From a virus, in IMG/VR virus record IMGVR_UViG_3300044678_002668, positions 15,503 through 79,502 of that record: DNA of 64,000 bases; one strand, given 5' to 3'. The position numbers were made by a program, and so were the translations under genes. This document shows positions 11,593-62,559 of this stretch, piece by piece. The notes beneath the pieces were generated by a model. That model saw only the letters and a list, made by a program, of their open reading frames with translations, was not told where the DNA came from and ran no database searches. The stretch's first letter is position 1, and every line of letters begins with the position of its first letter.

Positions 11593-11750
11593 CTAATTTA
11601 GAATACAATATGTGGGATGAATGTAATGTTATATCTGAACATAATGTTTGGGTAGAACACACTACTCCTGAAAATAGAAATCATTTTCAAGCTTCTTTTA
11701 CAAGTAACTGGTCTTGGTGGATTATGAAAACAGGGGAATATATTACATGA
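11589..11750 (+). CDS. microprotein (53 aa), array D
   Basis: GTGA overlap; ...WSWWIMKTGEYIT. Confidence 0.6.
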   Translation: MTNLEYNMWDECNVISEHNVWVEHTTPENRNHFQASFTSNWSWWIMKTGEYIT

Positions 11751-12082
11751 AATACGAAAAGTATAAAGATTTCACACAGTTAACAGGATCGTTAGAGGAC
11801 ATTGCTCTTGGTCTTGAGGATGAGCTAGTTAATGTGGACATTAAAGTCAAGCGTAAGAACTTCTTGGAGTGGTTGGGAGGAGATGAAGTTATCCTAGAAT
11901 CTGAATGGCCTCTTTATTGGGGCTCATCCTTTACTCTTAAAGGAGTATTGGAACCTCAAGAAGGAACCTGGGAAGTGGAGTTAGCGGTTACTGAGGGGGG
12001 AGATGAGGTGAGTGTATACGATATGGGGAACACTCTCTATTCCTACTTAGACGAACTCTTATCAGATTACACTAATACGTGA
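11747..12082 (+). CDS. acidic hypothetical protein
   Basis: ATGA overlap; GGGGA RBS. Confidence 0.75.
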   Translation: MKYEKYKDFTQLTGSLEDIALGLEDELVNVDIKVKRKNFLEWLGGDEVILESEWPLYWGSSFTLKGVLEPQEGTWEVELAVTEGGDEVSVYDMGNTLYSYLDELLSDYTNT

Positions 12083-12084
12083 CA

Positions 12085-12500
12085 TCCTGTTTATAGCTAC
12101 CCTTGCGCTTCGTGCTTTTAGGCACTACGCTTTTGGCGTTTGCTTAGATACACTAACCCTATTACGGGACTTTAAGTTACGCCGTTCCTTTTGGGAACAT
12201 TGGCGGGACATATAGCTTAGAACCCTTATGGGTTCAGTCTAGGGTGGCTTATGCCACCGAGCTGTTCAAGAGGGTAGAGCCTCTCTAGGGTAGTATGCCC
12301 AGCTCTTGACCACCTGTGGTTAGGCTAGTAGAATATATATCTACAGTCGGTTAACCTAACTCTTTGGGCGGGCCTTGCGCCTTCACTATATGTCCAGGTT
12401 CAGACCCTTGATTGTCCTTTAAGAAGGGGCACTAGTAGTCTAACCTGTTTGGCCTGGCCTCATTAGCTTCGGCGTCTAATGGGTAGGTCTTACTATTATT
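12085..12500. ncRNA. putative large structured noncoding element (strand unresolved)
   Basis: No ORF in the supplied track; GC-richer than flanks; >10 hairpins plus long-range helices (12206-15/12386-95; 12395-400/12442-47). Confidence 0.65.
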
Positions 12501-12503
12501 GTA

Positions 12504-12516
12504 ATATTATTTGTTA
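12504..12516 (-). promoter_or_regulatory. putative late promoter motif TAACAAATAATAT
   Basis: Exact copy of motif found upstream of late genes. Confidence 0.55.
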
Positions 12517-12551
12517 CTTAAGTAAAGAATAAAAAGAGTAAAAGGAGTGAC

Positions 12552-12743
12552 ATGATTATCTTAGATTACTTTGATGGGTCTCTTATTAAAGAGTTAAGAC
12601 GAGAGATTAAGAACTTACAATTTCAACAAGAATATATGAAACAGTTTGAAGATATTTATGTAGGTACTCGAGACAGTTTTTTAAGTATTGGAATAAATTA
12701 TATTTCTGACCATTATAAGAGGTATATGGATACATGGTTTTAA
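12552..12743 (+). CDS. microprotein (63 aa), array E
   Basis: AAGGAG RBS; RDSFLS motif. Confidence 0.75.
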   Translation: MIILDYFDGSLIKELRREIKNLQFQQEYMKQFEDIYVGTRDSFLSIGINYISDHYKRYMDTWF

Positions 12744-18438: not shown

Positions 18439-21246
18439 GTGAATCCAAGCAACAAGATTCTCTCAGACATCACCGCCTTTACTAAGTATGCTAAATACTT
18501 ACCTCATCTAGGACGACGAGAAACCTTGGCAGAAACCATTAACCGCTGTATGTCAATGCACCTGGATAGGTTTTCTCATCTGTCTTATGACATCACTAAA
18601 GCCTTTCAACGGGTACATGATTTGCGCGTTATGCCTTCCATGCGTTCCCTTCAGTTTGCAGGAGAGGCCGTATTAAAAAATCCAGCCCGTCAATATAACT
18701 GTTCCTACACTCCTATTAACGACACTAAAACTTTTAGTGAGGTTTTGTTTCTTCTTCTGTCTGGAGTCGGTGTGGGGTTCTCTGTTCAACGAGACCATGT
18801 AAACCAACTTCCTAAAATCACAATGCCCAAAGAACAAGGTCTTTATGTTGTGCAGGATTCCATTGTGGGATGGGCTGAAGCTCTTAATACTTTAATGGAA
18901 GCTTATTTCTTTGGAAAGATTAAGCCAGAATATGATTTCTCACAAGTACGTCCTAAAGGCTCATATCTCGTCACCACGGGTGCTAAAGCTCCTGGCCCTG
19001 AGCCCCTTAAGTACATGCTTAAAACAGTGGAGGGAAAGCTATTAGAAGCAATGGGACGTAGGCTAAAGCCCATTGAAGTACATGACATTGTATGTATTAT
19101 TAGCGATTGCGTTCTTTCTGGAGGTATTCGTAGGGCTGCCCTTATTTCTGTATTTGATAGAGACGATATGGAAATGCTAAAAGCTAAGCATGGAGAGTGG
19201 TGGGTTAAACATCCCTATAGAGCTAGATCAAATAACTCTGCCGTTCTTCCTTATGATAAGGTCACTAAGGAAGAGTTCTTTGAAATTTTTAAAATCTGTC
19301 AAGACTCTAATTCTGGAGAGCCTGGATTTAGTTGGACCAATAACACAGATTGGTCTTTTAACCCATGTGTATCAGGTAACACAGAAATTCTAACTCGTAA
19401 TGGATACGAGCGTATTGACTCTGTTGTAGATACTGAAGTGGAAGTTTGGAATGGTTTTGAATGGTCTAAAGTAACTCCTAAAGTAACAGGCACAAACCAA
19501 GAAATGCTTACCATTACTTTTAATAACGGCATTTCACTAGAGTGTACTAAATATCATAAGTTCCATATTGCCACTAACTACACGGGCGGAGTTAAAATTG
19601 TTGAGGCTAAAGATCTTGAGCCTGGAATGAAGTTAATCAAACATGAATTTCCTATTATTGAGCATGGAAAAGTTTTAGAAAACGCTTATACACAAGGATT
19701 TGTGTCAGCGGAAGGGATGGATAATTACAAATTTTGTTGGGTATATGAACCTAAAAAAATGTGTATTGAACGGTTAAAAGAAAACGCTTCACGAATTAGT
19801 GAAGAAAGTTTTGGAAGAGTTTCTGTACATTTTAAAACAGCTCTTCTTCCAAAGAACTTCGTGCCATTTGAATATAATCTCAAATCAAAACTAGATTGGT
19901 TGTCTGGATTATTTGATGGAGATGGGTGTGAGCTAAAAGAAGGAGGCTTGCAATTAACTTCCATTGACAAGCAGTTTCTTCTAAATGTTCAAAAACTTTT
20001 ATCCACTGTGGGAGTTTCTTCTAAGGTAGTGGCTGGAATGAAGGCTGGACTAAGAAGTTTACCAGACGGTAAAGGAGGACACAAAGACTTTAATTGTCAA
20101 GAAGCTTATAGAATCCTTGTAGGATCTGTACAAATGCAAAGCTTAAAAAAGCTAGGACTTTCTTGTGAGCGTCTCAAGTTTGACAAGTCTCCTCAACGAG
20201 ACGCTTCACAGTTTGTGTCTGTAGTGGATGTTGTTGATTCTGGAGTGGCAGAAAAAGTATATTGTTTTAACGAGCCTAAAAATCATACAGGAATTTTTGG
20301 TGGAGTTATTACAGGACAGTGCCATGAGATTGCACTGAATCCCAACCAGTTTTGCAATTTGTCCACAATCAATCAATCTAATATTAAAGATAAGCGAGAC
20401 TTTATGAATAGGGTTCATTCAGCCACGCTTATTGGAACTCTTCAAGCGGCTTATACAGACTTCCATTATTTGCGTCCTATTTGGCGAGAGCAAACAGAAC
20501 GTGAGGCTTTGTTGGGTGTGAGCTTTACTGGTATTGCTGATGGTACAGGTATTGTTACAAACGAATGGCTAAAAGAAGGAGCAGAGTTCGCTAAAGAGAT
20601 TAATCTTAAATATGCTAAGAAGCTAGGAATTAACCCAGCGGCTCGCATCACCACCACTAAACCAGAAGGCACTAGCTCTTGTATTTTAGGATCTTCTAGT
20701 GGTGTACATGCTCGTCATGCTCCATATTACATTCGCCGTATCCGAATGAATAAAGACGATGCTCTAGCTGTATACTTACGAGCCATGCTACCAGACTTGG
20801 TGGAAGACGATAAGTTTTCTTCTACTGGAGTAGTGGTTAGTATTCCACAAGAAAGTCCAAAGAACTCTGTTATTAGAAATGATGAGACGGCGTTTACACT
20901 ATTCCAGCGTACTCTAGATTACAATACTCATTGGGTACGTAATGGGCATCGCTATGGAGATAACCACCATAATGTAAGCGCCACCATTTCAGTACGTCCA
21001 AATGAATGGGACACTCTTAAAGAACAAATGTGGGAGAATAGGTATTCCTATCATGGCATTAGCTTACTTCCATACGATAATGGAACTTATGTACAAGCTC
21101 CCTTTGAAGAGTGTACGGAAGAAAAGTATAATGAAATGATGACTCTTGTTAAAGAAGTAGACCTCACTCAAGTAAGGGAAGAAGAAGATAAAACTACCAG
21201 AGCTGAAGAATTAGCTTGTGTTGGCGGTGTTTGCTTGGTAGAATAA
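18439..21246 (+). CDS. nrdJ: class II (B12-dependent) ribonucleotide reductase, intein-containing
   Basis: PSMRSL, YNCSY, GVGVGFSV, GGIRRAALI, NP|CHEI, KPEGT; C-terminal CVGGVC; no nrdB nearby. Confidence 0.9.
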   Translation: MNPSNKILSDITAFTKYAKYLPHLGRRETLAETINRCMSMHLDRFSHLSYDITKAFQRVHDLRVMPSMRSLQFAGEAVLKNPARQYNCSYTPINDTKTFSEVLFLLLSGVGVGFSVQRDHVNQLPKITMPKEQGLYVVQDSIVGWAEALNTLMEAYFFGKIKPEYDFSQVRPKGSYLVTTGAKAPGPEPLKYMLKTVEGKLLEAMGRRLKPIEVHDIVCIISDCVLSGGIRRAALISVFDRDDMEMLKAKHGEWWVKHPYRARSNNSAVLPYDKVTKEEFFEIFKICQDSNSGEPGFSWTNNTDWSFNPCVSGNTEILTRNGYERIDSVVDTEVEVWNGFEWSKVTPKVTGTNQEMLTITFNNGISLECTKYHKFHIATNYTGGVKIVEAKDLEPGMKLIKHEFPIIEHGKVLENAYTQGFVSAEGMDNYKFCWVYEPKKMCIERLKENASRISEESFGRVSVHFKTALLPKNFVPFEYNLKSKLDWLSGLFDGDGCELKEGGLQLTSIDKQFLLNVQKLLSTVGVSSKVVAGMKAGLRSLPDGKGGHKDFNCQEAYRILVGSVQMQSLKKLGLSCERLKFDKSPQRDASQFVSVVDVVDSGVAEKVYCFNEPKNHTGIFGGVITGQCHEIALNPNQFCNLSTINQSNIKDKRDFMNRVHSATLIGTLQAAYTDFHYLRPIWREQTEREALLGVSFTGIADGTGIVTNEWLKEGAEFAKEINLKYAKKLGINPAARITTTKPEGTSSCILGSSSGVHARHAPYYIRRIRMNKDDALAVYLRAMLPDLVEDDKFSSTGVVVSIPQESPKNSVIRNDETAFTLFQRTLDYNTHWVRNGHRYGDNHHNVSATISVRPNEWDTLKEQMWENRYSYHGISLLPYDNGTYVQAPFEECTEEKYNEMMTLVKEVDLTQVREEEDKTTRAEELACVGGVCLVE
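19366..20319 (+). mobile_element. intein with LAGLIDADG homing endonuclease (318 aa)
   Basis: Begins CVSGNTEILT after NP; LECTKYHKF block B; WLSGLFDGDG; VYCFNEP...ITGQ followed by extein Cys. Confidence 0.92.
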
Positions 21247-43808: not shown

Positions 43809-43821
43809 AAATTATTTGTTA
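43809..43821 (-). promoter_or_regulatory. putative late promoter motif
   Basis: TAACAAATAATTT, ~10 nt before ATG 43799. Confidence 0.6.
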
Positions 43822-44259
43822 ATTCGTAAATATTAGGATGTTTAACTGATAGCGTTTGTTAGCCACTAAGCCAGAAACATTCTGAATATTTAAAAGATTG
43901 TTTTGATCCACTGAAAAAGTAATGTAAGGGGTAGACGTTACAAACAAGCTACTATCGTCTATACACGTCGCTTTAACTACAAGGCTACCAAATATAGTAC
44001 CAGTGCTTGGATTCTTAATACGGGCCGTTAAACGCGAATCAGACCCATCCACAAGAGGAGTACCATTAGCGTCTACTTTTACAATGAAGTTTGTTAGCAA
44101 ACCCCATTTAAAATTACTTAAACTTAGCTCTCCTTGTAAAGTTTGCCAAAACTCTTCAAGAGCTGGATTAATTACGTCTGCCATTTTTTCCACAGTTGGA
44201 CGGATTTCTTCATCAAAATCCGAAGCTACAATGCGAGCGGGTTTTTGAATATTAGCCAC
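43819..44259 (-). CDS. virion structural protein
   Basis: ORF track; GTG 44259 is the likely start. Confidence 0.65.
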   Translation of the reverse strand: MANIQKPARIVASDFDEEIRPTVEKMADVINPALEEFWQTLQGELSLSNFKWGLLTNFIVKVDANGTPLVDGSDSRLTARIKNPSTGTIFGSLVVKATCIDDSSLFVTSTPYITFSVDQNNLLNIQNVSGLVANKRYQLNILIFTN

Positions 44260-47200
44260 GATATGCCCTTTCGCTTGCGCTACTTGGTACAACGCTTACT
44301 CCAAGAAGAGAAAAAGTATGACGAGCCACGTTATGTTTAAGTCTAAAGAACCAGTAACGGCCTCTTTGTTTTTCTCTTGGAAGATAAGTTCTAAACGGAT
44401 AAGAAGGTCCTGACCCACCATATACACTTTCACCCCAATTAAAATTACCCCAAGTTCCAGAACCTTGCATTGTAAAGTTTACGAAATCATACGAAGCGTC
44501 TAGATCAGTGGCATAGCCCATAGAGGCGTTTTTAAACGTGGTGTTTTCAAAAAGAGTAGTGGTTTCACGTACCTGTTTCATCATGCTAGGATCTCCTAAA
44601 GAGATGGGAGCATAAATTAAATCAGATTCAATGGCTTTTACATGTAATGAAGGTCCCACTACAAAAGGAGGAGTGTCATCAATTTTTACAATACGAACAT
44701 TAGAAAGTACTTCTGTAATGTTAGTTTCATAAAGTTTTGTTCCAACACTATGTTTATAGTCTGAAAAAGAAGGCACTAAGCTTAAATTTAAGCTATCAAT
44801 AAAAGCATTATATTGTGTTTGAAACGTAGCTGGATTAGGATCTGAAGGAGCTACAAACGCAGTGGATAAATCTGCATTTAATTGAGTTACTAGTGCGCTC
44901 ATCAAAGTAGTTAAATTAGATCCAGGCAATACTGAAAAGTTTTGATAAAAGCTAACACTGCCGCTTGGAATAGAAGCATCTAAAGCTAGTTTAAGAGAAA
45001 GGTTTTTAATGTCTGCTAAAGTTACATATTGAGTTTGTAATAGAGCGTCTCCTGCTTTTACTAAAGCAATAGATGGTAAAAGAAGTTCTTTATCTGCATA
45101 TATATAAAAGTTTGTAGTAAATTCAGTGTTAAACTCTCTGTCTGCATAATCTGTTCTATCAAAATTCTTACGTTCTTCTTCTACAACAGCTAAATCAGCT
45201 ACGCCCAAGTATAATTTATTGCTTGAAAGAGATACCAATCCAGATGTAGCGGGCTTATTCCAGTTAGTCCAAGACTGTGTAAAAAGATTATATCTGTAAC
45301 ACTGGGAAGCAGAGGTGTCGTCAGAAGATGATGGGACATATAAGATAAGGGCTCGATCTGTTTCATAAGAAATACCAAAAGTTAAGAATTTAAAATCAGA
45401 GTTATTTAAAAGAGGGAAAAGTTTATTTTCAATAGAACGAGAAATTACTTGTACTCCGCTGTCACTCACAGCTACAATACCTTGGTTTGAAAACATATAA
45501 ACCAAGTTACTTAATACTACGGCACTGTCTGGAGCTAAAATAAAATTAGTTAAATCAAGTGGATATGTAGTAAAATTAGGAGCTTGAGTCCCAGTTACTC
45601 GGAATACTCCGTCTTCTTTTAATACAAGCAGACTATCTCGAAGAGCTAAAATGCGCTCAATGGCTTTATTTTTAGCTCCTAAATCTACATAATTTAAAAG
45701 AGGAAAAGCTTCTGGCTGTTGGTATTTAGAAAAATATAGCCTGTTTGGATTTGTAGAAGCCGCAGAAAATACTGTGGCTTTATACCATAAAACTCTTCCA
45801 GCAGTTTCTGCTCCAGGTAATTCCACAGTGAAAATCGTAGAAGTTGGAGCAGTTAATACTTCATATACTCCGCTATAAGTAGGAAGCTCTAATCCTACTT
45901 CATCTCCTACAAGTAGTCCATGAGCCACATCTGTAGTTACGGTGATGATGGTGGCGCCATTGCAAGACCCTCCCAACACTTCAGGAAGAGTTGGTTCAAA
46001 ATCATCTCTACCAGCAGTACCAACAGTATCTCTAAAGCCTAAAAAGATTTCGTTATCTTCTAACGTATTGGCTGTAAATGTAATACGAGGAGTAAAGTCT
46101 TGAGTTCCAGAAGTATAAAAGAGTTTGACAAAAGTATTGTCAGGATCTGTGTTTGCCACTTTAATTAAGCTTCTAGCTGTTTCGTCAATCTTATCAGAAA
46201 CTGTAATAAAATCTGAACGTTTTACTAAAAGTTTATCTTCTACAAGAACTTCTCCAAAAGCCCTACTTAAAAGGGATGCAGAAAAAGCTCCAGTTGAACT
46301 AGTATCAACATATAAATCTTGGTTTACTGCTGAAGAGGGGAGTCCCCACCAACCAGAAGTGGCATTTTCCGCTGTTATGCGGTTTGAATGGATTGTATGT
46401 ACCCCAGTACCAATAGAAGTAAAATTAACTAAAGTGGTGAGTCCAGAATCTCTATATAGCTTAAATTCATTAGCATTTAATACGTTAACATAATAGCCAC
46501 TAGATCCCATAATTACGGAAGTAATGGGACCTGTTCCAGAGCTGGTAATGTATATTTGATCTCCAGTAGATAAACCATGAGAAGTAATTAAAATGCTGTC
46601 GTTTAATAGATCTAAATCATCGGGTTCAAAAGAAAGCTCATAAGCTTTTAGATTTTTCCAGTCTCCAAAAGCAGTTAAAGCCTCCACTAAATTAGCGGCA
46701 ACTTGAGCTTTATTTGATTTTTTAAATAAAGTTCCTGCTCCAGTTAAAGATAGAGCCGCACCATTATAAGTTGGAGTTACAGAAAAAGTAGTATCAGTAA
46801 GCTTTAGTACATAGAGCTGATCTCCAGCTACTGCACCAGTAACTCCCAGAGTTCCTAAAGCAATTAAATCTCCAGTAGAAAGTCCATGATTGGTAGTGGT
46901 GGTGGCCACTGTTCCTAATACAGAGCTAACTGTAACTTCAGAAGAAGTTTGCACTATGTTTACAGGAATTCTTTGAGCAGTTTCTGGAAACGTAATTGTA
47001 GATAGAGGAGGAGCAGTTTCATTGTCGGAAGTATAGAAATAATACTTTCTTTGTCCATCATACGAATTTAGATAAAACAGTTTATCTTCAAAAGAAGATA
47101 GAGTATCTAAAGTGGAATCTGTAACTTTAAGAGTAAACTTACCAGTTGAGCCACCAATATAATATTTTAAATATCCCAAAGCTCCTTCTTTTTGAAGAGC

Positions 47201-48688
47201 TAAATGAGAAGTGATAACACGGGCTCCTTGAGCTGATACGATGGTTTGATTAGCAGGAAGAGTAATTACTAAAGTAGAGCCAGTAGAAAGAGCTTCAGCA
47301 TCAAACCTACCTACAACTCCACCATGAATTCTAAGATCTGCTGTTGTTCCAGAAGTTAAATCTAAAACAGATCCCATATCATTAACAAGCTGTACTAGAC
47401 TTGTTCCATCATACCGTTTAATGCGGTAGTAAGTATTAGCAATAGCACCGCCAGGTAAACTACCAATAAAACGAGCCTTGAACCCTTCATAAGCGTATAA
47501 CGTAGAGTCATTTAGGATATTTAAAGTAGTGTCTAAACTGACTCCAGTCCTTTCAATGTAGGAGTCAGGAAAAGCCACATAGCACTCATCTCCCACTTGG
47601 AGATTATGAGAACCTGACAAGGTTAAAGTATAAGTTTGACCAGAACTTGTAAAAGAGTTTACATCAAGTCCTTCAAAACCCTCTACACTAAGTACATTAA
47701 TGTCCAAAGTATGTTTAGTGCGAGTATTAGCAGCAAATAAACTTCCTTGAAATTGAGTTAAATCCTTAGCAAAAGGAGGAGTGTAGTTGGATTGTAAAAG
47801 TCCCTCTCCACTAAATTCATTAGTGTATAAGAATGCAGACACTTCCCAAACTTCAGCGGTGGTGGTGTCTGTTAAATCTACATATCCTTTAGCAATATCT
47901 TCAGAGGTGAGAACATGTTCAGCTACTTGCTGCATTTCATCGTTAGGAACTACAGCCGTGGCTAAAAGATCTAAAGAGCTTGTAAAAGGATTGTTACTGC
48001 GATATACCTGAACAAAGTAGTCTGTAGTGAGATTTTCAGGTAGCAATATACGTAAATCTACATTACAAGTATTAGAGCTTACGTTAGTGATAATTACTCG
48101 ATTAGAAGGAGCACCTAAAAGTAAGTTGCTATTGTTGTCATTATATCCAACCACAATGCGATAGGCCACCTTAGATAAAGGTAGCATAAAGCCCGTAGTG
48201 GTGTAGTTAGTGTTTAAAATAGGATCTAAAGCTTGAGGAATTCCAGCATCTAATAGCTTGTTTTCTCCAGAAGAAGCGATAAAAGCATTTGTAGAAGAGC
48301 TGATCTTTTTAATACCTTGAGACGTGGTGACGTATAAGTTTCCATTAACTTCAGCAGATCTAACTCTACGTCCAGTTTCAGTGGGAGCGCATTCAGCATC
48401 TGTGCTGCCATCTGCTTGTTTAAAAGTCTGTAAAGTGGTAGAGGACCCATCATCATAAGCTAGATTGGTACCATATTGGGCTAAAATACGGTCTCTATAG
48501 GATAGGAGTTGATTAGCTCGTCCTGAAGCACTAGCAATATTACGCCATTGCTTAAACCCTCTACGAGGTTGAATGATTCCATCACGGTCAATAACCGTGT
48601 TAAGAGCTTGTAAAAGGGCTCCTTCTGGGATTTCAGAAAGAAAGTTAGGAAGGAGTTGTAGACCTTTGGCTCGAAGCATTACGGCCAT
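44252..48688 (-). CDS. tail tubular protein B / nozzle (P22 gp10, T7 gp12-like) with large insertion
   Basis: NRLYFSK..PEAFP, LLVLKEDGVF propeller motifs; position after adaptor. Confidence 0.65.
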   Translation of the reverse strand: MAVMLRAKGLQLLPNFLSEIPEGALLQALNTVIDRDGIIQPRRGFKQWRNIASASGRANQLLSYRDRILAQYGTNLAYDDGSSTTLQTFKQADGSTDAECAPTETGRRVRSAEVNGNLYVTTSQGIKKISSSTNAFIASSGENKLLDAGIPQALDPILNTNYTTTGFMLPLSKVAYRIVVGYNDNNSNLLLGAPSNRVIITNVSSNTCNVDLRILLPENLTTDYFVQVYRSNNPFTSSLDLLATAVVPNDEMQQVAEHVLTSEDIAKGYVDLTDTTTAEVWEVSAFLYTNEFSGEGLLQSNYTPPFAKDLTQFQGSLFAANTRTKHTLDINVLSVEGFEGLDVNSFTSSGQTYTLTLSGSHNLQVGDECYVAFPDSYIERTGVSLDTTLNILNDSTLYAYEGFKARFIGSLPGGAIANTYYRIKRYDGTSLVQLVNDMGSVLDLTSGTTADLRIHGGVVGRFDAEALSTGSTLVITLPANQTIVSAQGARVITSHLALQKEGALGYLKYYIGGSTGKFTLKVTDSTLDTLSSFEDKLFYLNSYDGQRKYYFYTSDNETAPPLSTITFPETAQRIPVNIVQTSSEVTVSSVLGTVATTTTNHGLSTGDLIALGTLGVTGAVAGDQLYVLKLTDTTFSVTPTYNGAALSLTGAGTLFKKSNKAQVAANLVEALTAFGDWKNLKAYELSFEPDDLDLLNDSILITSHGLSTGDQIYITSSGTGPITSVIMGSSGYYVNVLNANEFKLYRDSGLTTLVNFTSIGTGVHTIHSNRITAENATSGWWGLPSSAVNQDLYVDTSSTGAFSASLLSRAFGEVLVEDKLLVKRSDFITVSDKIDETARSLIKVANTDPDNTFVKLFYTSGTQDFTPRITFTANTLEDNEIFLGFRDTVGTAGRDDFEPTLPEVLGGSCNGATIITVTTDVAHGLLVGDEVGLELPTYSGVYEVLTAPTSTIFTVELPGAETAGRVLWYKATVFSAASTNPNRLYFSKYQQPEAFPLLNYVDLGAKNKAIERILALRDSLLVLKEDGVFRVTGTQAPNFTTYPLDLTNFILAPDSAVVLSNLVYMFSNQGIVAVSDSGVQVISRSIENKLFPLLNNSDFKFLTFGISYETDRALILYVPSSSDDTSASQCYRYNLFTQSWTNWNKPATSGLVSLSSNKLYLGVADLAVVEEERKNFDRTDYADREFNTEFTTNFYIYADKELLLPSIALVKAGDALLQTQYVTLADIKNLSLKLALDASIPSGSVSFYQNFSVLPGSNLTTLMSALVTQLNADLSTAFVAPSDPNPATFQTQYNAFIDSLNLSLVPSFSDYKHSVGTKLYETNITEVLSNVRIVKIDDTPPFVVGPSLHVKAIESDLIYAPISLGDPSMMKQVRETTTLFENTTFKNASMGYATDLDASYDFVNFTMQGSGTWGNFNWGESVYGGSGPSYPFRTYLPREKQRGRYWFFRLKHNVARHTFSLLGVSVVPSSASERAYRG

Positions 48689-48697
48689 TAAACCCCC

Positions 48698-49678
48698 TTA
48701 AGGTCGAAAAGTATACCGACGCGAACGTAAAGGAGACTGTGTATTTACAACTTTTTGTGGACTTCCTTCTACTCGATTTTGTAGTAGAATATTTGTATTA
48801 ACTAGCATTTCGGCTAGTTTAGCATTGGCTGCATTTAGACCTTCCCTGTCTCCTAGGGCTTCTAAACAACGGCAAGCAATACGTTGGGCCAATACTGAGT
48901 GGAGTTCGTCTGTAAGCTGGGGAACTTTTGTTTCCCCTGCTAAAGACACAAAATCTCCTGCTTTTGGCACTCTATAACGAATAGAATTATCAGGGTTTCT
49001 TTGAGCATCTTCTAACTGATTACGAGGAATAACAATGGTGGAAGACGTTACAGCGGAAGGGGTAATATCATATTGCAAGATTTTATAGGGAGAATATCCT
49101 TGAACAATGTCATATTTTTCTTGCGCTGTAAACGCTGTTGGAGAAGCTGCTGTAAAGGTAAGAGTATACTCTTGTGTTCCTGAATTATAGCTTACGCTTT
49201 GAATAGTGGCCACTCGTTCTTCTGCCACCATGTTATTAGGACGCATATAATACGTCATTAACAAATCGTCTCCAGTATTTCCAGGACTATTTAAAGGCAT
49301 TAAATTAATAGTGTTGCTTAGAACATAAAAGCCCCTAGCAAAACCATTACCGTAATAGCTTGGATAATCTCCTAGATCATCTTTGTTAATGCGAGTCATG
49401 TTAATTAGATTGCCTGAGCTATCTAATACATAAACGTCTCTTAGCTTATTTGCAATGGCTCGATATGGAATTTCATATGCCGAGACATTGGGATTAATAG
49501 CAAAAGCTTCTTGAAAAAGCATATGTTCTTCATGTGTTTGAAGAACGTTAGGAACCATGCCAATCAACATTTCTTCGTTAGCAAAACGAAGAAAATCAGC
49601 CGTTGTAAACGTCTGTTGATTAGTTGGAATTAAAGCCCTATTTTTTACGCTTTCAATAAGCGTGGAAGACGTAAGCAT
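48698..49678 (-). CDS. head-tail adaptor / tail tubular protein A
   Basis: LIESVKNR..DFLRFANEE N-terminal helix; synteny. Confidence 0.6.
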   Translation of the reverse strand: MLTSSTLIESVKNRALIPTNQQTFTTADFLRFANEEMLIGMVPNVLQTHEEHMLFQEAFAINPNVSAYEIPYRAIANKLRDVYVLDSSGNLINMTRINKDDLGDYPSYYGNGFARGFYVLSNTINLMPLNSPGNTGDDLLMTYYMRPNNMVAEERVATIQSVSYNSGTQEYTLTFTAASPTAFTAQEKYDIVQGYSPYKILQYDITPSAVTSSTIVIPRNQLEDAQRNPDNSIRYRVPKAGDFVSLAGETKVPQLTDELHSVLAQRIACRCLEALGDREGLNAANAKLAEMLVNTNILLQNRVEGSPQKVVNTQSPLRSRRYTFRP

Positions 49679-49698
49679 TGTAAAACCTTTCAGAAATA

Positions 49699-50091
49699 TT
49701 AAGACTTCATCTTAGCAAGCATTTCTTGAAGGTCTTTTAGCTTCTCCTCTAACATGGCAATTTTTTCATCTTTATCCATGTCCATATCTTCTTCCATGTC
49801 ATCGTCTTCTTTTTCGCCCATTAAAGCATCAGCCATTTCTACAGGATTACCTTCTTCAGGCAACTCTTCTAAAACGTCTTCAGCTTTTTCTAAACCTTTT
49901 TTAAGACCTTCTTTGTCAGGAGCAGCTACAGTTACTTTCTGCATCATTCCTGATTTTAAAGATTCTTTCATGTCATCAGAAGCAGCATCACGTAAATCTT
50001 TAACTACGCTCATTTTAGCTTCTTTTTCTAATTGGTCAGCCTTTTTTGGCTTACCAAACTTTTCTGCCATATATCCTTTAAGATCTTTCAT
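49699..50091 (-). CDS. acidic hypothetical protein
   Basis: KVTVAAPDKEGLKKGLEKAE; GGGAG RBS. Confidence 0.75.
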   Translation of the reverse strand: MKDLKGYMAEKFGKPKKADQLEKEAKMSVVKDLRDAASDDMKESLKSGMMQKVTVAAPDKEGLKKGLEKAEDVLEELPEEGNPVEMADALMGEKEDDDMEEDMDMDKDEKIAMLEEKLKDLQEMLAKMKS

Positions 50092-50105
50092 CTTAATATT
50101 CTCCC

Positions 50106-50765
50106 TTATGTAAATACGGCCAATAGGCCAATTAAAACTAATGCAATATATAATTTTTTATTATGAGATTTGATTTCTTCTTTAAAAAGATCCAACTCAT
50201 GTTTCATTACAGTCATCTTATGTTCCAACGCCTCTACAGCCGAATTATCTGCTTTGTGAACAATAATGGGATTTGGAACTTGAACGGGTTCTGGTTTAGG
50301 TAAGTTTTTAATCTTTTCTTTTAAATCAGACATTTCTTTTTCTAAAAGATCTAAACTAAAAGCAGTGTCTAGCTCAACTTTAGAGACTTCTTCTTTGCAC
50401 GAACATTTAGGATGTTTTTTGTGCAGGAGCTTACGAACTCTAAGTTTATTTTTTAAAGCGTGTTTATAAAGGTGTTCCATTTCATCTGCAAGTAAAGCAA
50501 ATTTTGCTTCATCTGTAAACGTAGGTCCAGGCTCAACTACCTCAAAAGGAAAAGGTTCTTCTTCTTTAATGGGCTCAGCTTTAATTGGAGCGTGAAAAAA
50601 GGTAGCAAATTCTTGATCTTTTACAAAAGCTTGACGAGCCCGTTCCTTATCAAAAGGAACTAATACAAAACCTTGCTCTTGAAGTTGTTTTAAAACGTCT
50701 TCGGAAGGATTTACTAAAATCCTTACAATATTTCCGTTTTGTTCAACCATTATTTTCTGTTTCAA
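50106..50765 (-). CDS. hypothetical protein with C-terminal TM
   Basis: ORF track. Confidence 0.7.
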   Translation of the reverse strand: MKQKIMVEQNGNIVRILVNPSEDVLKQLQEQGFVLVPFDKERARQAFVKDQEFATFFHAPIKAEPIKEEEPFPFEVVEPGPTFTDEAKFALLADEMEHLYKHALKNKLRVRKLLHKKHPKCSCKEEVSKVELDTAFSLDLLEKEMSDLKEKIKNLPKPEPVQVPNPIIVHKADNSAVEALEHKMTVMKHELDLFKEEIKSHNKKLYIALVLIGLLAVFT

Positions 50766-50922
50766 GAGTACCTTCTTTTTTATCTTTTGTTGATTCTGTT
50801 AAAGCTTTTACAATTGTTTCTAAAGCTTTTGCTATTTCTCTATGTTCTTTAGCAGTGGCTACATGTTTTTCACACACTTCCGCAATTGTTTTTAAAGCTT
50901 TGTTTAATTCTTGGATATCCAT
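50743..50922 (-). CDS. hypothetical protein
   Basis: GAGGTG RBS before MDIQE. Confidence 0.65.
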   Translation of the reverse strand: MDIQELNKALKTIAEVCEKHVATAKEHREIAKALETIVKALTESTKDKKEGTLETENNG

Positions 50923-50946
50923 AACACCTCGCAAAGCCTTATTTTA

Positions 50947-51324
50947 TCAGATTTCAACCCACCCTTCAATATAAATAAATCTTTTAGGAGCTGTTAAAGT
51001 TTGTTGTAAACCATTGATAGAGCAATTAATAGCTTGAGGACCACCAACCATTAAACCTACAGTAAATTTAGAAAGAGGTTTAGGATTTAATGGAAAAGTA
51101 TAAGAAGCTCCCTCTTGAGCTATTACAATAATTTCATTCAATCCAAATAAAAGACTGTCGTCTTCTGCGTTACCTTGAATACGAATACTACCATCTGTTT
51201 TAAATGTTAAGATATCGTCTTTAGATGTGGCTACAGGCATGGTGCCTTCTGGAGCTTGTACAACTCCAAAAGACTCAATTTGAGCTGGACGAATAAAAGT
51301 ACCTGTAATTGGATCAAAAGGCAT
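50947..51324 (-). CDS. putative virion protein
   Basis: ORF track, coupled. Confidence 0.7.
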   Translation of the reverse strand: MPFDPITGTFIRPAQIESFGVVQAPEGTMPVATSKDDILTFKTDGSIRIQGNAEDDSLLFGLNEIIVIAQEGASYTFPLNPKPLSKFTVGLMVGGPQAINCSINGLQQTLTAPKRFIYIEGWVEI

Positions 51325-51325
51325 C

Positions 51326-51592
51326 TTATGGCTCCACTACAGTGGCATTAGAAACGTATTGTTTTGTGCCGTCTGTATAATTAATGGTAATGGTGCCTAC
51401 AAGAGTTCCACTTGCTCCGCCTCTTTTATATGTATATACTTCTTGAGTGGCAGAAGGGTAGGCTACACTGTAATAATCAAAGTCAAATTTAATTAAAGAG
51501 CTTGCAGCAACAGTGCGAAGAGCATAGCTATCCTGGTCAAAGGATTGCTTAATTGCTCCTCCCATATCTGCATTAATGTTTCTTTTTGCCAT
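51326..51592 (-). CDS. putative virion protein
   Basis: GAGG RBS; beta-rich; preceded by late motif. Confidence 0.7.
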   Translation of the reverse strand: MAKRNINADMGGAIKQSFDQDSYALRTVAASSLIKFDFDYYSVAYPSATQEVYTYKRGGASGTLVGTITINYTDGTKQYVSNATVVEP

Positions 51593-51601
51593 AAGTCCTC
51601 G

Positions 51602-51614
51602 ATATTATTTGTTA
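51602..51614 (-). promoter_or_regulatory. putative late promoter motif
   Basis: TAACAAATAATAT, ~10 nt before ATG 51592. Confidence 0.65.
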
Positions 51615-54029
51615 ATTCAATCGTTTAAATACTACGTAAGCACTATCTAGTCCAACAGGACCGTCTGAATAGGCTCTTACGTCTAAAATGTCTCCTGCAA
51701 CACAATCAGTAACAACATCAGTACCTTGAAGAACTCTGTTATATGTGCCAGCAGTTTCAATTTGAGTTCTGTCCATAATGTTATATTGAGAACCATTTTT
51801 AAAAATATATAACTCTTGAACACTTCCAACTGTCCAAGAAGCAGAGCCACATCGTAAAAATGTAGTTATTTCATAATCTCCATCTGCTCCACTTGGAACA
51901 GTAAACCTACCTGTAGAGGTGTTATATGCAGAGCTGGTATCTTTGTTTTCAGTTCCGTTTATAACAATGGGAGTAGTGTTGTTAATTAGAGTGGCAGCAT
52001 TAGAAGCTCTAGCAAAAATATATGGACGAGGTTCTAAGTTTACCCAAGAAGTACCATTATAATATTTTAAAAATCCTGTAGAGCTGTTATAATATGTAGC
52101 TCCACCTTCTGGAGTTCCAGGGTCTGCTGTGGCTACTGGAGGTCTAAAATAACGTCCAGCGGCAACAACTTTACCTCGTGTGCCAGAAACAACAGTTCCA
52201 GCTATAAGGTTAACGTCTCCACTAGAACCTGTACCAGATACGTTACCTGTACCTACAGTGGCAGAACCAGAAGTTCCATCTACTACCGTACCGCTTCTAA
52301 AAGTTTGGGCTCCGCTTGATGTGGCACCAGTTTGGTTTGTTGTACCAACTCGACCAGAACCGTCTGATGGCATACTAAAAAATACACCATGTAGAGAAGC
52401 CCAACGAACTGTTCCAGAACCTAAGTTTTTAGTATTATTAGTATCTGGTATAATATCAGCATTAACAGCCGTTGAAGCTAAGTTATTAAGAGAAGTGGTG
52501 GCTCTTCCATCAATGTCTGTTTGTAATTCGTTTAAAGCTCCTTGTACATCAGTGGCTGCTAAATTACCAGAAGGAATATTACTAATAGCAGAAGCATCAT
52601 GTGCATCAGCGGCATCAGAAAGATGGTTTGATAAATCTGTAGAAACTGTATTAATTTGTGTTTGTATTGCAGAAGTAACTCCAGATAAATGACCTAATTC
52701 TGTAGAAGTTACAGTGGAATGAGTGGGAATACCGTTAGCATCAGAAATTAAAGCTCTTGCCGCTGTAATGGCCGCAGCATCTATCATAGTTCCAGTAGCG
52801 TTATTAACAACCATTCTATTGCCAGTACCGTTTGCTAGCTTTGATCTAGCAATTGCAGCAGAAGCACTTACATCAGCATTTACAATAGTGGACGCACTAA
52901 ATACACCAGCATTAGCTTTAACTACCCCAGTAAAAGAAGCTCCGCTAGTTCCTAATCCACCACGAGAAGCTGAAAGAGCTGATTCACTGGACATTACTCC
53001 AGTACCGTCATTAATTAATACGTGGTTAGCAGTACCAGACGCTAATTTAGATCTAGCAATTGCAGCGGCTGTAGCAATATCAGTATTTACAATGGAGTTT
53101 GATAGGTTTAATTTACCATAAGTAATACCAGCGGCAGGATTTACGTCAGCATTAGTTAATAAAGCTGCCGTTACGTTATTGCTTGCGTCTAGTTTTAGGA
53201 TTGTAGATGGAGAAAGAGCTGAAAGATTTAACGTTCCACTAAAAGTTTTATTACTTGTAAAAGTTTCTGAAAGATTTAAAGAAGCAAGTGTAGCACTTCC
53301 AACAGGATATGTATAAGTACGAGATCCAGCTTGTGCTTCAAAATCTAAAATAATATTGTGAGTGGCAGTGGGTGGTAATACCTCAAACTCACCGCTATTA
53401 GCAGGAGCTTTAAATATCCAACCATCTCGTGTAGGATTAGTACGAACATAACCCGTAATGGAGTTAGCTTCTTCTACTTCTAAACCAGCAGAAGCTGCTG
53501 ATCCTGCACTACCTCCGTTATTAATAGTAATAGCTTTGTCTGCCACTTCATAATTAGTGACATTTTGAAAAGCCGTAGTACCTTGTACGTTAACTGTAGC
53601 ACCACTATTACCAATATTAATAATTTGAGCAGTGGAGTCAGTTCCAATATTTAAAGTACCGTTAGTAGCACGTTGAATAGAAGTAGTAGTAATTTGCTCA
53701 GCGGCTAGTTTATTAGCCACGCTATCGTAGGTTAGTTCTGCTTCTGACGTTAAGTTACCACCCGTATCCGTAAATATTACTCGTCCAGAACCTAATGAAG
53801 CAGTTAAGTTAGGAATTTGTCTAAAGTTAGTATCATTAGCCGTAGTGGTATGTTTAATATATACGCCACCAGTAGAGGTAGACATATAAATAGATCCAGG
53901 AGAAAGACTAATACCAGGAGCTACTGAGGTGGGGTCTACACTTCCAGTGGCAATGGTGGTGCCTTCAGCTAACTTTAAAGCTGATTTAAGAGCTTTTAGT
54001 CTATCTCCAGAAAAAATAACTGAGGCCAT
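51612..54029 (-). CDS. tail fibre / spike protein with C1q/TNF-like tip
   Basis: S/T/G/A-rich, repeated AIARSKLA and HDASAIS modules; C-terminal AYNTSTGRFTVP..GDY. Confidence 0.75.
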   Translation of the reverse strand: MASVIFSGDRLKALKSALKLAEGTTIATGSVDPTSVAPGISLSPGSIYMSTSTGGVYIKHTTTANDTNFRQIPNLTASLGSGRVIFTDTGGNLTSEAELTYDSVANKLAAEQITTTSIQRATNGTLNIGTDSTAQIINIGNSGATVNVQGTTAFQNVTNYEVADKAITINNGGSAGSAASAGLEVEEANSITGYVRTNPTRDGWIFKAPANSGEFEVLPPTATHNIILDFEAQAGSRTYTYPVGSATLASLNLSETFTSNKTFSGTLNLSALSPSTILKLDASNNVTAALLTNADVNPAAGITYGKLNLSNSIVNTDIATAAAIARSKLASGTANHVLINDGTGVMSSESALSASRGGLGTSGASFTGVVKANAGVFSASTIVNADVSASAAIARSKLANGTGNRMVVNNATGTMIDAAAITAARALISDANGIPTHSTVTSTELGHLSGVTSAIQTQINTVSTDLSNHLSDAADAHDASAISNIPSGNLAATDVQGALNELQTDIDGRATTSLNNLASTAVNADIIPDTNNTKNLGSGTVRWASLHGVFFSMPSDGSGRVGTTNQTGATSSGAQTFRSGTVVDGTSGSATVGTGNVSGTGSSGDVNLIAGTVVSGTRGKVVAAGRYFRPPVATADPGTPEGGATYYNSSTGFLKYYNGTSWVNLEPRPYIFARASNAATLINNTTPIVINGTENKDTSSAYNTSTGRFTVPSGADGDYEITTFLRCGSASWTVGSVQELYIFKNGSQYNIMDRTQIETAGTYNRVLQGTDVVTDCVAGDILDVRAYSDGPVGLDSAYVVFKRLN

Positions 54030-54040
54030 AGTTTATATCC

Positions 54041-55297
54041 TTAACCTAAGAAGGTTACAATGAAAGAGCCAGCAGTGGGGGCAGATCCATTAGAACGAAC
54101 TGTAATGCGCGTAGAAGCATTAATAGAGGCTTCTAATGGAGAGTCCTGTCCAGGTCCTACATAAGCTAAAAGACTACCAGAAGCAGCTCCTGTTCGTAAT
54201 TGAAGAGTTTCCCCAGTGGTTTCATATAAAGCTATCTTTTTTACTGCACTACCAAAACCAGCAGTAATTTCATAAGGAGCAGTTACAGAGTTTGGAATGG
54301 ATGAAAAGTCCACTACAAACGATCCTAATACTTGAAGAGGATTTAATTTTGTGTTAATAGAAGAAAGAGAAGTATTAGCAGTGTCTTGTTTAGCTTCTGT
54401 AGCGGCTCCAGTTGGAAGAGTTGAACTTACCACTGTAACGCTATCTGTGTCAACAGAAATTATTTTTCCATCAATATTGCTTAAAGTACTTTCTGTAGCG
54501 GCATCTGGAGGTAAAACAGCATTTGTTACATCTGCTTCTACTGTTAAAGCTCCTGAAGGATTTACTTTTACATTAACATATCCTCCACCTCCACCAGTAG
54601 TTTCTCCAGTAATGATGGAACGATTTAATTCTGCAAACATATTACTGTTTACAGTTTGACTTAAAGTATAAAGAGAACCTTGAACTTTTGTAGTTTTAAA
54701 AATAGTTTGAAGTCTAAACGCAGTTTGAGGAGAAGCTCCGTTAATGTATACTATTCGAGCATACCTAAATTCGGCATTAAAAATATACCCTACTCCAGAA
54801 ACAGCAGTATATGTTGTTGAATGGGAATGATCCCAATTTACTCCATTAGTAGAAAATTCTACTCTTACTCCGTTTGTAGCAGAAGGAACATTTGAAAATA
54901 CGTTAACATTAATACAAGCATAGTTAGTAATATCAAATGCCGTGCCAGTAAAAACTCCTGCTCCAGCTAATAAAGTGGTAGAAGAGTTTCCAGCATCTAC
55001 TTGTCCATCTAACTCAATGGAATTTGATACAGTTACAAGACCGTTTGATCCAATGTCAACAGGAACTTTACCACCAATTAAAGCGGGAGTTTTGTTGTCA
55101 ATGGATGTAATGCTAGTTTCTAAACCGTCTGTATTATTTTCAATATCGGTTAAAATAGCTGTTTGAACGTCTTGCTTAGCAGCGGTGGCTAATCCACCAG
55201 CTCCTGTAGAGGCAACAATATTTACTTGAACGGATTCCGTAGCTGGGTCATAAACCTGTTTAACTACGTTTCCAGGACTTAAATCTTTAGTAGACAT
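54041..55297 (-). CDS. virion structural / fibre-associated protein
   Basis: ATxAKQD/ATESTL repeats, S/T-rich. Confidence 0.65.
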   Translation of the reverse strand: MSTKDLSPGNVVKQVYDPATESVQVNIVASTGAGGLATAAKQDVQTAILTDIENNTDGLETSITSIDNKTPALIGGKVPVDIGSNGLVTVSNSIELDGQVDAGNSSTTLLAGAGVFTGTAFDITNYACINVNVFSNVPSATNGVRVEFSTNGVNWDHSHSTTYTAVSGVGYIFNAEFRYARIVYINGASPQTAFRLQTIFKTTKVQGSLYTLSQTVNSNMFAELNRSIITGETTGGGGGYVNVKVNPSGALTVEADVTNAVLPPDAATESTLSNIDGKIISVDTDSVTVVSSTLPTGAATEAKQDTANTSLSSINTKLNPLQVLGSFVVDFSSIPNSVTAPYEITAGFGSAVKKIALYETTGETLQLRTGAASGSLLAYVGPGQDSPLEASINASTRITVRSNGSAPTAGSFIVTFLG

Positions 55298-55455
55298 TAT
55301 TTCTTCTCCGGTAAGTTTTTATATTTTAGCTTACCTTTATTTTCTTTTGTAAACTCTTCAGCTTCTTTTTTAGTTAAACCTTTTTCTTTTCGTAAGTTTG
55401 GGTTATTTTGGAGAGCTTTGAAGAATCTGAATTGTCTTTTACTTTTTGCTGGCAT
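55297..55455 (-). CDS. small basic protein (52 aa)
   Basis: Hand-translated MPAKSKRQFRFFKAL...LPEKK; AAGGA RBS; coupled to next gene. Confidence 0.65.
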   Translation of the reverse strand: MPAKSKRQFRFFKALQNNPNLRKEKGLTKKEAEEFTKENKGKLKYKNLPEKK

Positions 55456-55568
55456 GGGCAGGTTTCCTTACAATCTTTCTTTAAACTATATCTACAAGTT
55501 CCACATTTTATCCAACCGTGAAGTTCTGGATGGGTTGTCATCCATCCTAAGCATATGGGACAAGTCAT
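55374..55568 (-). CDS. small Cys-rich protein
   Basis: CPIC...CGTC zinc ribbon. Confidence 0.45.
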   Translation of the reverse strand: MTCPICLGWMTTHPELHGWIKCGTCRYSLKKDCKETCPCQQKVKDNSDSSKLSKITQTYEKKKV

Positions 55569-55571
55569 TAA

Positions 55572-56363
55572 TTACTCAACCCACTGGATAATTAAATATC
55601 CATCTCCACCATTGCCGCCATTAGCTCCGTTTTCAAAAGTGTGGCCACCACCACCACCGCCTCCACCACTACCTAAAGAACCGCTGGTTCCAGCAGTGGC
55701 ATTTACAGCGGGGTTTCCTGCATCGAGACTTCCTCTACCTCCAGCACCACCAGCGCCAATGGAAGCTCCACCGCCTCCACCACCGCCACCACGAGATCCA
55801 AAAGGACCTGGAGCAGATCCGTTGGGACCTCCGGCTCCACCAGAAGCATGAAGCGTAGCTTGACCAGAAGATCCATTTTGACCTGTACGGCCTCCTCCAC
55901 CGCTGTGAGCGGCTGGCATAGCTTCAGTGGGCTTACCTGCACCGTTTCCACCTTGACCGTTACCTGCGGCTTGAGGTAATCCGTTACCTTGAGCAGCTAC
56001 TCCGTTACCCGCTCCACTACCACCAACACCTCCTAAAAAGGTTTTAGTGTCAAAAATAGTGTCTCCACCATTTAAACCAGCACTAGCCGCTATAGATGGA
56101 TTATTTGATCCAGCTCCTCCTGTACCACCAGCTCCAATAGTAACTCCATAAACTAATCCAGGACTTACATATAAAGGTGTTTCTAAAATAGGAGCACCAG
56201 CTCCTCCAGCTCCACCCGTACCAGAAGTAGCTGAAGCAGCGGCACAACCTCCACCGCCGCCTCCGCCTCCTCCACCACATCCCCATAAACGCACTTCAGT
56301 GACACCAGCAGGACATCGCCAAGTTCCAGAAGAAGTAAATACAACAGAACGTAATTTTGCCAT
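55572..56363 (-). CDS. glycine-rich tail-associated protein
   Basis: FTSSGTWRCPAGVT..GGGGGG...GGDGYLIIQW glycine-rich domain. Confidence 0.8.
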   Translation of the reverse strand: MAKLRSVVFTSSGTWRCPAGVTEVRLWGCGGGGGGGGGGCAAASATSGTGGAGGAGAPILETPLYVSPGLVYGVTIGAGGTGGAGSNNPSIAASAGLNGGDTIFDTKTFLGGVGGSGAGNGVAAQGNGLPQAAGNGQGGNGAGKPTEAMPAAHSGGGGRTGQNGSSGQATLHASGGAGGPNGSAPGPFGSRGGGGGGGGASIGAGGAGGRGSLDAGNPAVNATAGTSGSLGSGGGGGGGGHTFENGANGGNGGDGYLIIQWVE

Positions 56364-56369
56364 ATAGAC

Positions 56370-57341
56370 TTACTCCTTAAACCAATTAGTACCGTCGCTA
56401 AAGATTACAACGGAACCCCAGAATCCACCTTGAGAGTAAAATTCTTGGTTAAAAGCCACACCATCAATCTGCTCTGAACCAGAACGAACAAGGGTAATTT
56501 TATTAGATGGAGAAGATCCTTTAATATTTAAACGTACCCAAGCTCCAGTTACAGGAGTGGGTAAGGTCATATTAATATTAGCTCCAGTAGGAGTAATGAG
56601 ATAAGTTTTTCCACTAACCATAGTGGTATTTGAATTTACTGCCACTACATCAAACTGAGAAGCAGAAATAAGGTTATCAATATCGTCTTGAAGTTCTTCT
56701 AAAGCTTCTTGCACTTCAGTGGCTGTTAAATTACCAGAAGGAGTTACACTAATGGCAGAAGCATCGTGTGCATCAATAGTATCAGAAATATGATTATCAA
56801 GATTGTCTTGGATTTCTTCTAAAGCCGCTTGAGCATCAATGGCCGTATTAGTGCCAAAAGGAGCCACACTGATTGCTGAAGCGTCATGAGCATCTATTGT
56901 ATCTGATAAGTGATTAGAAAGATTAGTGGCGTTAGTATTTAGTTGCGTTTGAATATCAGAAGTTACATTATCTAAATATCCAAGCTCCGTTGTGGTGATG
57001 GAACTATCCACCATAACACCACTTCCATCATTAACTAATACCCTATTAGATGTACCAGAAGCTAGTTTAGAACGGGCAATATTGGCTCCAGCTTTAATAT
57101 TGCCGTCATCAATATTTGTAAGAGTGTTACTATCAGCATCAATGCTTTTATTAGTTAAAGTGGCCGTATTAGATTCTGATTGAATGGTGGTGCCTGTAGA
57201 AGGAAGCGTAACGCTTAAATCTACGTTAGGACTGGAAATTGTATAGTTTCCTTGTCCAGCATTAAAGATTAAGTTTTTAGCTCTGTTTACGATATTTTGT
57301 ACCGCTATAGATCCAAAAAACTTTTTAGGAACTAGTGCCAT
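56370..57341 (-). CDS. tail fibre-like protein
   Basis: TLTNKSID, IARSKLA, two HDASAIS repeats, C-terminal SDGTNW. Confidence 0.7.
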   Translation of the reverse strand: MALVPKKFFGSIAVQNIVNRAKNLIFNAGQGNYTISSPNVDLSVTLPSTGTTIQSESNTATLTNKSIDADSNTLTNIDDGNIKAGANIARSKLASGTSNRVLVNDGSGVMVDSSITTTELGYLDNVTSDIQTQLNTNATNLSNHLSDTIDAHDASAISVAPFGTNTAIDAQAALEEIQDNLDNHISDTIDAHDASAISVTPSGNLTATEVQEALEELQDDIDNLISASQFDVVAVNSNTTMVSGKTYLITPTGANINMTLPTPVTGAWVRLNIKGSSPSNKITLVRSGSEQIDGVAFNQEFYSQGGFWGSVVIFSDGTNWFKE

Positions 57342-57343
57342 AG

Positions 57344-57802
57344 TTAAGCCTCAATTCCTGTTGCTCGGAACCTAATATTAGAAGTTCCAGTCGCAATTAC
57401 TCCACTTGTGTACACAACACTGCCACTATTTACAGCTAAAGTAATGTCTGTTGGCACTGACCCACTATCATATTCAATATTGTAATCCCAATCTGCTCCA
57501 GTGCTAATCATGGTGAGATAGCCAGTTTCACGAGTAGTATTACGAATAATAGAAAATTCAATTTCTACCCGTCGATACAAAGACGGGTTAAAGGTCAATA
57601 AAGTAATTACTGCATTAGTTTGAGAGTTTAAAAGAGTTTGAGTTGTTACTGGTACGAAAAGAGAAAAGGAGTTTACTTGGTTAGATACGTCTACAATCCA
57701 ATCTGTGACGTTTTCTCCCCAAAAACTATCTAATGGGTTAGCTCCTTGATTTGGAATCTGATATGTGTTGGAGCCAACTGTTACTTGGGTGGTATTAGAC
57801 AT
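57344..57802 (-). CDS. virion structural protein
   Basis: GAGG RBS; WGENVTDW motif. Confidence 0.7.
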   Translation of the reverse strand: MSNTTQVTVGSNTYQIPNQGANPLDSFWGENVTDWIVDVSNQVNSFSLFVPVTTQTLLNSQTNAVITLLTFNPSLYRRVEIEFSIIRNTTRETGYLTMISTGADWDYNIEYDSGSVPTDITLAVNSGSVVYTSGVIATGTSNIRFRATGIEA

Positions 57803-57835
57803 TATAAGTCCTCAAAATTACTAGGTATAGGTCAT

Positions 57836-57848
57836 ATATTATTTGTTA
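57836..57848 (-). promoter_or_regulatory. putative late promoter motif
   Basis: TAACAAATAATAT, intergenic. Confidence 0.65.
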
Positions 57849-57853
57849 AACGC

Positions 57854-58261: not shown

Positions 58262-58271
58262 AATTACCTCA

Positions 58272-58284: not shown

Positions 58285-58286
58285 TA

Positions 58287-58668: not shown

Positions 58669-58674
58669 AAATAC

Positions 58675-62550: not shown

Positions 62551-62559
62551 AAGTATTCA

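Follow-up and report, generated by a model that had tools for sequence, protein, structure and literature searches.

GOLLD and ROOL are large, heavily structured noncoding RNAs encoded by phages, and their function is unknown (PMC12286853). GOLLD expression rises during phage lysis, and both RNAs use A-minor contacts and kissing loops (PMC12286853). The element described here, a noncoding block of about 400 nt in the genome of a lake phage, resembles them in several respects. It is phage-borne and probably expressed late, it has A-rich loops on the minus strand, and it carries a self-complementary AUAUAU loop. It differs in size, GOLLD/ROOL-type RNAs being about 580 and 800+ nt long, and in its surroundings. 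There is no tRNA gene neighborhood, and the window (the whole stretch of DNA that was analyzed, 64 kb in length) is without tRNA genes. It also differs in that no Rfam 15 model matches it above chance level, even at E-values up to 10. Judged by these likenesses and differences, the element may work like GOLLD or ROOL but is not one of them.

The phi29 pRNA is another phage-encoded structured RNA, and it too is used in a late process. This RNA is about 174 nt long, its gene lies at the genome end of a protein-primed phage and has an early promoter, and it multimerizes by loop-loop pairing. The phage studied here is unrelated, a PolA phage of 80 kb. A pRNA family exists in Rfam and, that being so, it gives no match to the element.

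The GC-IGR orphan RNA candidates also lie in unusually long, GC-enriched intergenic regions of AT-rich genomes (PMC8632094). Those candidates were accepted on covariation across homologues, whereas the present element is a singleton.

Group I introns of phages share with the element a size of 250-450 nt, a GC content above that of the flanks, and a multibranch fold. Short stretches of the element (GUUCAG... and AUAUGUCC) resemble the R and S core elements of these introns. Unlike a group I intron, the element matches no Rfam intron model, and the ORFs on its two sides are separate genes.

Phage genome and flanking genes

The phage genome is a 79.5-kb IMG/VR virus record, estimated to be 95% complete, of which the window covers bases 15503-79502. 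It encodes a family A DNA polymerase (PolA), a DnaB-type helicase, a MoxR ATPase with a VWA partner, a ribonucleotide reductase-like protein with intein signatures, and an HK97-type major head protein. A 935-aa protein encoded on the plus strand at 18439-21246 has weak matches to the class II ribonucleotide reductase insertion domain, to LAGLIDADG, and to intein splicing; on these matches it is probably an intein-containing B12-dependent reductase. Early and replication genes occupy the plus strand at 5984-35679, and virion genes occupy the minus strand at 35681-63947. Lake and freshwater metagenomes of up to 17 studies, all of them DNA only, are reported to contain the stretch around the element, and four runs were compared.

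The element is flanked by two genes on the plus strand. The upstream gene (11714-12082, 111-122 aa) ends at its own stop codon at 12080-12082, just before the element. GC skew on the plus strand is +0.36 to +0.40 over 11700-11999, so that the antisense of this gene is C-rich and G-poor. The downstream gene (12552-12743, 63 aa) has its own AAAGGAG ribosome-binding site and an ATG at 12552, and its frame is closed by a TAA at 12519. In one lake-run contig, the upstream 122-aa gene carries 9 differences in 162 nt (11800-11961). Most of those checked alter the amino acid, as would fit rapid evolution of the early genes. This contig could not be linked to the same strain as the contig that covers the element, and the differences therefore carry no claim about conservation.

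Noncoding status and composition

The noncoding status of the element is directly supported. A preliminary description of this DNA had proposed a densely base-paired noncoding element of about 410 nt, and both parts of that proposal hold, as the region is ORF-free on both strands and folds beyond its shuffles. ORFs of at least 30 aa are absent from both strands of 12083-12551, where each of the six frames contains 9-14 stop codons. Because the stops in every frame are of all three kinds, protein coding with an altered genetic code is ruled out. No other ORF-free gap in the genome is as long as this one of 469 nt, the second longest being 217 nt. The GC content inside the element is 0.47-0.50 compared with 0.26-0.33 in the flanking small-gene arrays, which makes the element a GC island.

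Structured RNA genes of AT-rich genomes have an established signature, namely a long intergenic region enriched in GC (PMC8632094). The longest intergenic region of an AT-rich genome, a GC island, and an exceptional fold coincide in the element, and it therefore bears that signature (PMC8632094).

Predicted structure

The exceptional fold is likewise a direct result. With RNAfold, the whole element reaches -150.9 kcal/mol on the plus strand (z -3.35) and -136.0 kcal/mol on the minus strand (z -4.17). These scores come from 100 dinucleotide shuffles, and 0/100 folded as well on either strand, making the excess significant on both. The core at 12206-12395 has z-scores of -4.0 on the plus strand and -5.6 on the minus strand, with 0/200 shuffles as good. 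The segment at 12104-12205 scores -3.3 and -2.4, respectively. Over 12396-12499 there is no significant excess over shuffles (z -1.7 on the plus strand, -0.9 on the minus strand), and the well-supported structure is therefore 12112-12395.

The fold also stands out across the genome. In a scan of 200-nt windows with the minimum free energy (MFE) regressed on GC, two windows over the element have the two largest negative residuals on the plus strand, and one of them ranks second on the minus strand. The element also has the highest folding energy per base. Judged by these predicted folds, it is a real and striking structured noncoding element, though one that stands as a singleton candidate.

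Every helix named in the preliminary description was found in the sequence. These include the hairpins at 12112-12125, 12127-12139, 12180-12205, 12220-12235, and 12243-12258, the GAGCTG/CAGCTC pairing (12259-64/12300-05), a perfect 10-bp helix (12206-15/12386-95), and CAGGTT/AACCTG (12395-400/12442-47). The claimed 3' stem with a cTTCGg cap fared less well. The stem and the UUCG are present, but the cap needs a 3-nt bulge, and the predicted loop is the 6-nt UUCGGC.

The outer domain at 12112-12153 is predicted on the plus strand as a nested three-part stem, composed of GUG/CAC, an 8-bp helix with two G-U pairs, and an ACGCU/GGCGU hairpin, with pair probabilities of 0.91-0.99. This nested 16-bp stem forms on the plus strand only; the minus strand has two short hairpins with CAAAA and CUAAAA loops. 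A hairpin at 12180-12205 follows, in which CGCC/GGCG surrounds GUUCC-loop-GGAAC (pair probabilities 0.94-0.98).

The core multibranch domain (12206-12395) is closed by the perfect 10-bp helix. It contains two hairpins, at 12220-12235 and 12243-12258, of 6 bp each and with the same 4-nt loop, as well as an arm at 12259-12305, an arm at 12328-12344 with a self-complementary AUAUAUA loop, and a hairpin at 12366-12382. The AUAUAU part of this loop (12333-12339) is only a hint of possible self-association. On the minus strand the core folds as a five-way junction with one long arm, and on the plus strand as seven hairpins in a row. The MFE structure and the centroid structure of the minus-strand core are the same, which indicates a well-defined ensemble. 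Among the predicted pairs, 12325/12354 and 12312/12369 are particular to the minus-strand fold, and 12118/12147 and 12121/12144 to the plus-strand fold.

Beyond the core lies an arm at 12396-12446 (AGGUU/AACCU, AGAC/GUCU, and an 8-bp tip helix that is complete on the plus strand only), which is not significant alone. The terminal irregular hairpin with UUCG occupies 12447-12493. On the plus strand it is followed by a U-rich, non-canonical tail, and on the minus strand it would open a late transcript.

Known RNA families

That the element belongs to no known family is directly supported. Rfam 15 at gathering scores gave 0 matches across the 64-kb window, with families covered that include GOLLD, ROOL, OLE, HEARO, raiA, pRNA, 6S, RNase P, ToxI, and riboswitches. 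At E-values up to 10, the region 11900-12700 yielded only two chance-level matches, to snoR21 (19.6 bits) and P26 (13.8 bits). ARAGORN found neither tRNA nor tmRNA genes in the 64-kb window.

Several specific candidates were rejected. No Intron_gpI match (catalytic core P3-P8) appears at E-values up to 10, which excludes a group I intron. An intron splitting a single gene is excluded as well, since the upstream gene ends in a stop codon of its own, translation of the downstream gene has a separate ribosome-binding site and ATG, and the downstream frame is closed at 12519. A riboswitch or leader of the downstream gene has no Rfam match, and the ribosome-binding site lies 50 nt past the last helix.

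The late motif

The 11-mer TAACAAATAAT occurs in 10 exact copies in the genome, where about 0.25 copies are expected from base composition by our estimate, and it is the most over-represented 10-11-mer of the genome. The bias of the motif in strand and position is a direct observation. All 10 copies are on the minus strand; seven of them precede the start codon of a minus-strand gene by 5-36 nt, and another precedes the major head gene by 164 nt. The preliminary description had a late motif pointing into the element on the minus strand, and this is correct. The copy at 12506-12516 adjoins the element and is directed into it, with no ORF following. It is the sole copy within the plus-strand early region, and a weak sigma-70-like TTTACT-17-TACAAT overlaps it.

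Based on its distribution, TAACAAATAAT is a candidate for the late promoter of the phage. Several copies are followed by GAGG after 3-4 nt and by ATG after 11-12 nt. If the motif is a promoter, this spacing would leave the late mRNAs with very short leaders. Being so near start codons, the motif could instead act at the mRNA level.

Other copies of TAACAAATAAT are found on the minus strand at window positions 43811-62572 and at genome positions 4433, 10983, and 13319. One copy without a close start codon is followed by an ORF-free gap of 183 nt at genome 13169-13351 (window -2334 to -2152). A second noncoding stretch is located on the minus strand at 58287-58703, between the terminator of the major head gene and the next late motif. 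It is A-rich, has repeated UAAACCC-type words and a promoter-like TTGACT-17-TATACT site of its own, is without an Rfam match, and has a folding z-score of -2.2. The element was rejected as a paralogue of this stretch, as the late motif is the only match between the two.

In a related phage of 77.6 kb (G004), AAACCCGAGCATCACCA and overlapping 10-mers occur in 12-14 copies on one strand (L011-L014). From this repetition, AAACCCGAGCATCACCA is a candidate regulatory repeat of that phage, distinct from TAACAAATAAT.

Strand of the putative functional RNA

Whichever strand is considered, the element is probably a functional structured RNA, though well short of certainly so. The earlier reading of it as an unannotated base-paired noncoding RNA element without an Rfam match, with a late motif aimed into it from the minus strand, stands; its preference for the plus strand does not. 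That preference relied on G-U wobbles. The plus-strand fold does have 13 G-U pairs compared with 6-8 on the minus strand, but shuffled sequences give 22 and 10. The plus strand is G+T-rich and the best fold of each strand takes its own wobbles, so that the asymmetry is uninformative on strand.

On the minus strand, A makes up 49% of the unpaired bases, and 67% of the A residues there are unpaired; on the plus strand, unpaired bases are 46% U. Natural structured RNAs typically have A-rich unpaired positions, and rRNA, for example, leaves most of its A unpaired. The position of the putative promoter, the z-score of the core, and the A-rich unpaired bases make the minus strand at least as likely as the plus strand. 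The strand of the element thus leans to minus, and if the element is a functional RNA, the minus strand would be mildly favored as the functional one.

The best-surviving alternative is that the functional RNA is the plus strand, within an early polycistronic transcript between two small-gene arrays. Such an RNA could be an excised stable RNA or a long structured spacer, which the late antisense promoter would silence or destroy. The plus strand of the element is certainly transcribed in the early operon, as it is co-oriented with all neighboring genes, and this orientation is that of all genes from 5984 to 35679. Its absolute MFE is lower, at -150.9 compared with -136 kcal/mol, and it alone has the nested 16-bp stem at 12112-12153 (z -3.3 for this part). 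It also carries a 3' hairpin with UUCG, after which comes a U-rich tail. These points are set against the G-U excess, which is what composition predicts, a core z-score worse than that on the minus strand, unpaired positions rich in U rather than A, and a core that turns into an unusual 8-way string of hairpins. A plus-strand RNA would also be without a promoter of its own. A sigma-70-like scan found no plus-strand promoter directly upstream of the element; the only plus-strand matches lie inside it (12306-12334) and, further upstream, within the flanking ORF (11697-11725 and 11873-11900). A plus-strand RNA is accordingly regarded as unlikely, though still credible.

The match at 12306-12334, within the core, is TTGACC-17-TAGAAT with 10/12 positions matching. 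It is probably due to chance, given that the count of matches in the region is not above that in shuffles.

Relatives and population data

Searches for relatives of the element were negative. By blastn, the element has no match in phage and plasmid collections. Homologues were also sought with five loop-and-junction IUPAC patterns with free stems, three against IMG/VR, one against JGI metagenome contigs, and one against GTDB. None of the three structure-aware patterns matched in IMG/VR. The JGI metagenome pattern gave one match (L015), an AT-rich chance match without stems, and the GTDB genome pattern gave two chance matches, also without stems.

The neighborhood is similarly isolated. No IMG/VR relatives were found for the 122-aa, 281-aa, 239-aa, and VWA neighbor proteins. 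In a set of 5.8 billion proteins, the 122-aa protein finds only itself, and the 281-aa protein finds itself and one relative of 50% identity on a 1.4-kb contig. Going by the major head protein, the closest phages are G003 (55% identity) and G004 (41%). The two genomes are near-complete, and in both the whole early region is missing and no comparable noncoding gap is found; they have only the replication and virion modules in common with the phage.

Across the four lake runs, there are 0 substitutions inside the element and the sole variant is an extra T after 12130, in contigs that are too fragmentary for a claim of conservation. The extra T falls in the loop of the inner hairpin of the outer domain.

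A compositional island without relatives, in a hypervariable region of relative-less genes, is what would be expected of a functionless relic, either GC-richer DNA acquired from elsewhere or the decayed remains of a mobile element rich in hairpins. However, no source sequence turned up in the phage, plasmid, IMG/VR, JGI metagenome, and GTDB searches, and neither terminal inverted repeats nor a second genome copy was found. An outlying fold with an exact late motif at its edge would be unexpected for junk. A relic is quite unlikely on this balance.

Proposed late RNA and antisense transcription

The reading put forward here, tentatively and with rather less than even confidence, is that the element is a late, free-standing, structured noncoding RNA of an undescribed class, encoded on the minus strand and about 400 nt long (from about 12500 down to about 12100). 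The motif at 12516-12506, acting as a late promoter, would start the minus-strand transcript at about 12500. The transcript, which has no ORF, would enter the GC-rich folds in the order of terminal hairpin, arm, and core. The 190-nt core would form a five-way junction closed by a helix of 10-11 bp, and distal hairpins with A-rich loops would follow.

This RNA would probably end by factor-dependent termination where it runs antisense to the upstream gene, in C-rich, G-poor sequence. Rho-dependent termination would suit the C-rich, G-poor sequence that lies just beyond the element on the minus strand. An intrinsic terminator scan found no canonical site on either strand of the element, and terminators are absent from the minus strand for several kb leftward of it. 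Late timing would argue for a late-stage role, such as assembly, packaging, or host handling at lysis, over an early role in host takeover. Against a late minus-strand RNA stands the first hairpin of the proposed transcript, which is weak on that strand.

The same late promoter could instead drive antisense transcription against the early operon, through interference or double-stranded RNA, with no stand-alone function for the RNA. The folded GC-rich block would then merely stabilize the 5' end of the antisense transcript or block early read-through. This would explain why the only late motif in the early region is oriented against the early genes and why no terminator interrupts the minus strand for several kb leftward. 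However, a 5' stabilizer would need far less than a GC island of 400 nt with a closed multibranch core of 190 nt, and the promoter-proximal part is the least structured on the minus strand. Antisense shut-off without an RNA function is thus distinctly unlikely.

A DNA-level element acting through single-stranded hairpins or cruciforms, for example as a priming or protein-loading site, is highly improbable, since the significant fold with DNA parameters (z -3.5) reflects Watson-Crick helices common to the RNA folds and is not independent evidence, the phage has a DnaB-type helicase and PolA that lend such a site no mechanistic support, and the whole element is not palindromic.

Implications for large phage RNAs

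The strand question has a methodological side, as it shows that counting G-U pairs is an unsafe means of strand assignment where composition is skewed.

It is conceivable, but very unlikely, that in this abundant and uncultured lake phage the element represents a new class of late large phage RNA, one that serves as a scaffold or an RNA machine in the late phase. Such an RNA might self-assemble through its palindromic AUAUAU and A-rich loops, or it might have a role in head assembly or packaging. In function it would then be a counterpart of GOLLD, ROOL, or pRNA, although unrelated to them.

Few natural RNAs are as poorly understood as GOLLD and ROOL, which were recently shown to form cages made solely of RNA. 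If the proposed late RNA is real, another, unrelated large phage RNA of 400 nt would widen the category that GOLLD and ROOL represent. The element would bring to this category a clear timing signal, in the form of the late promoter motif, and a compact object for probing and cryo-EM.
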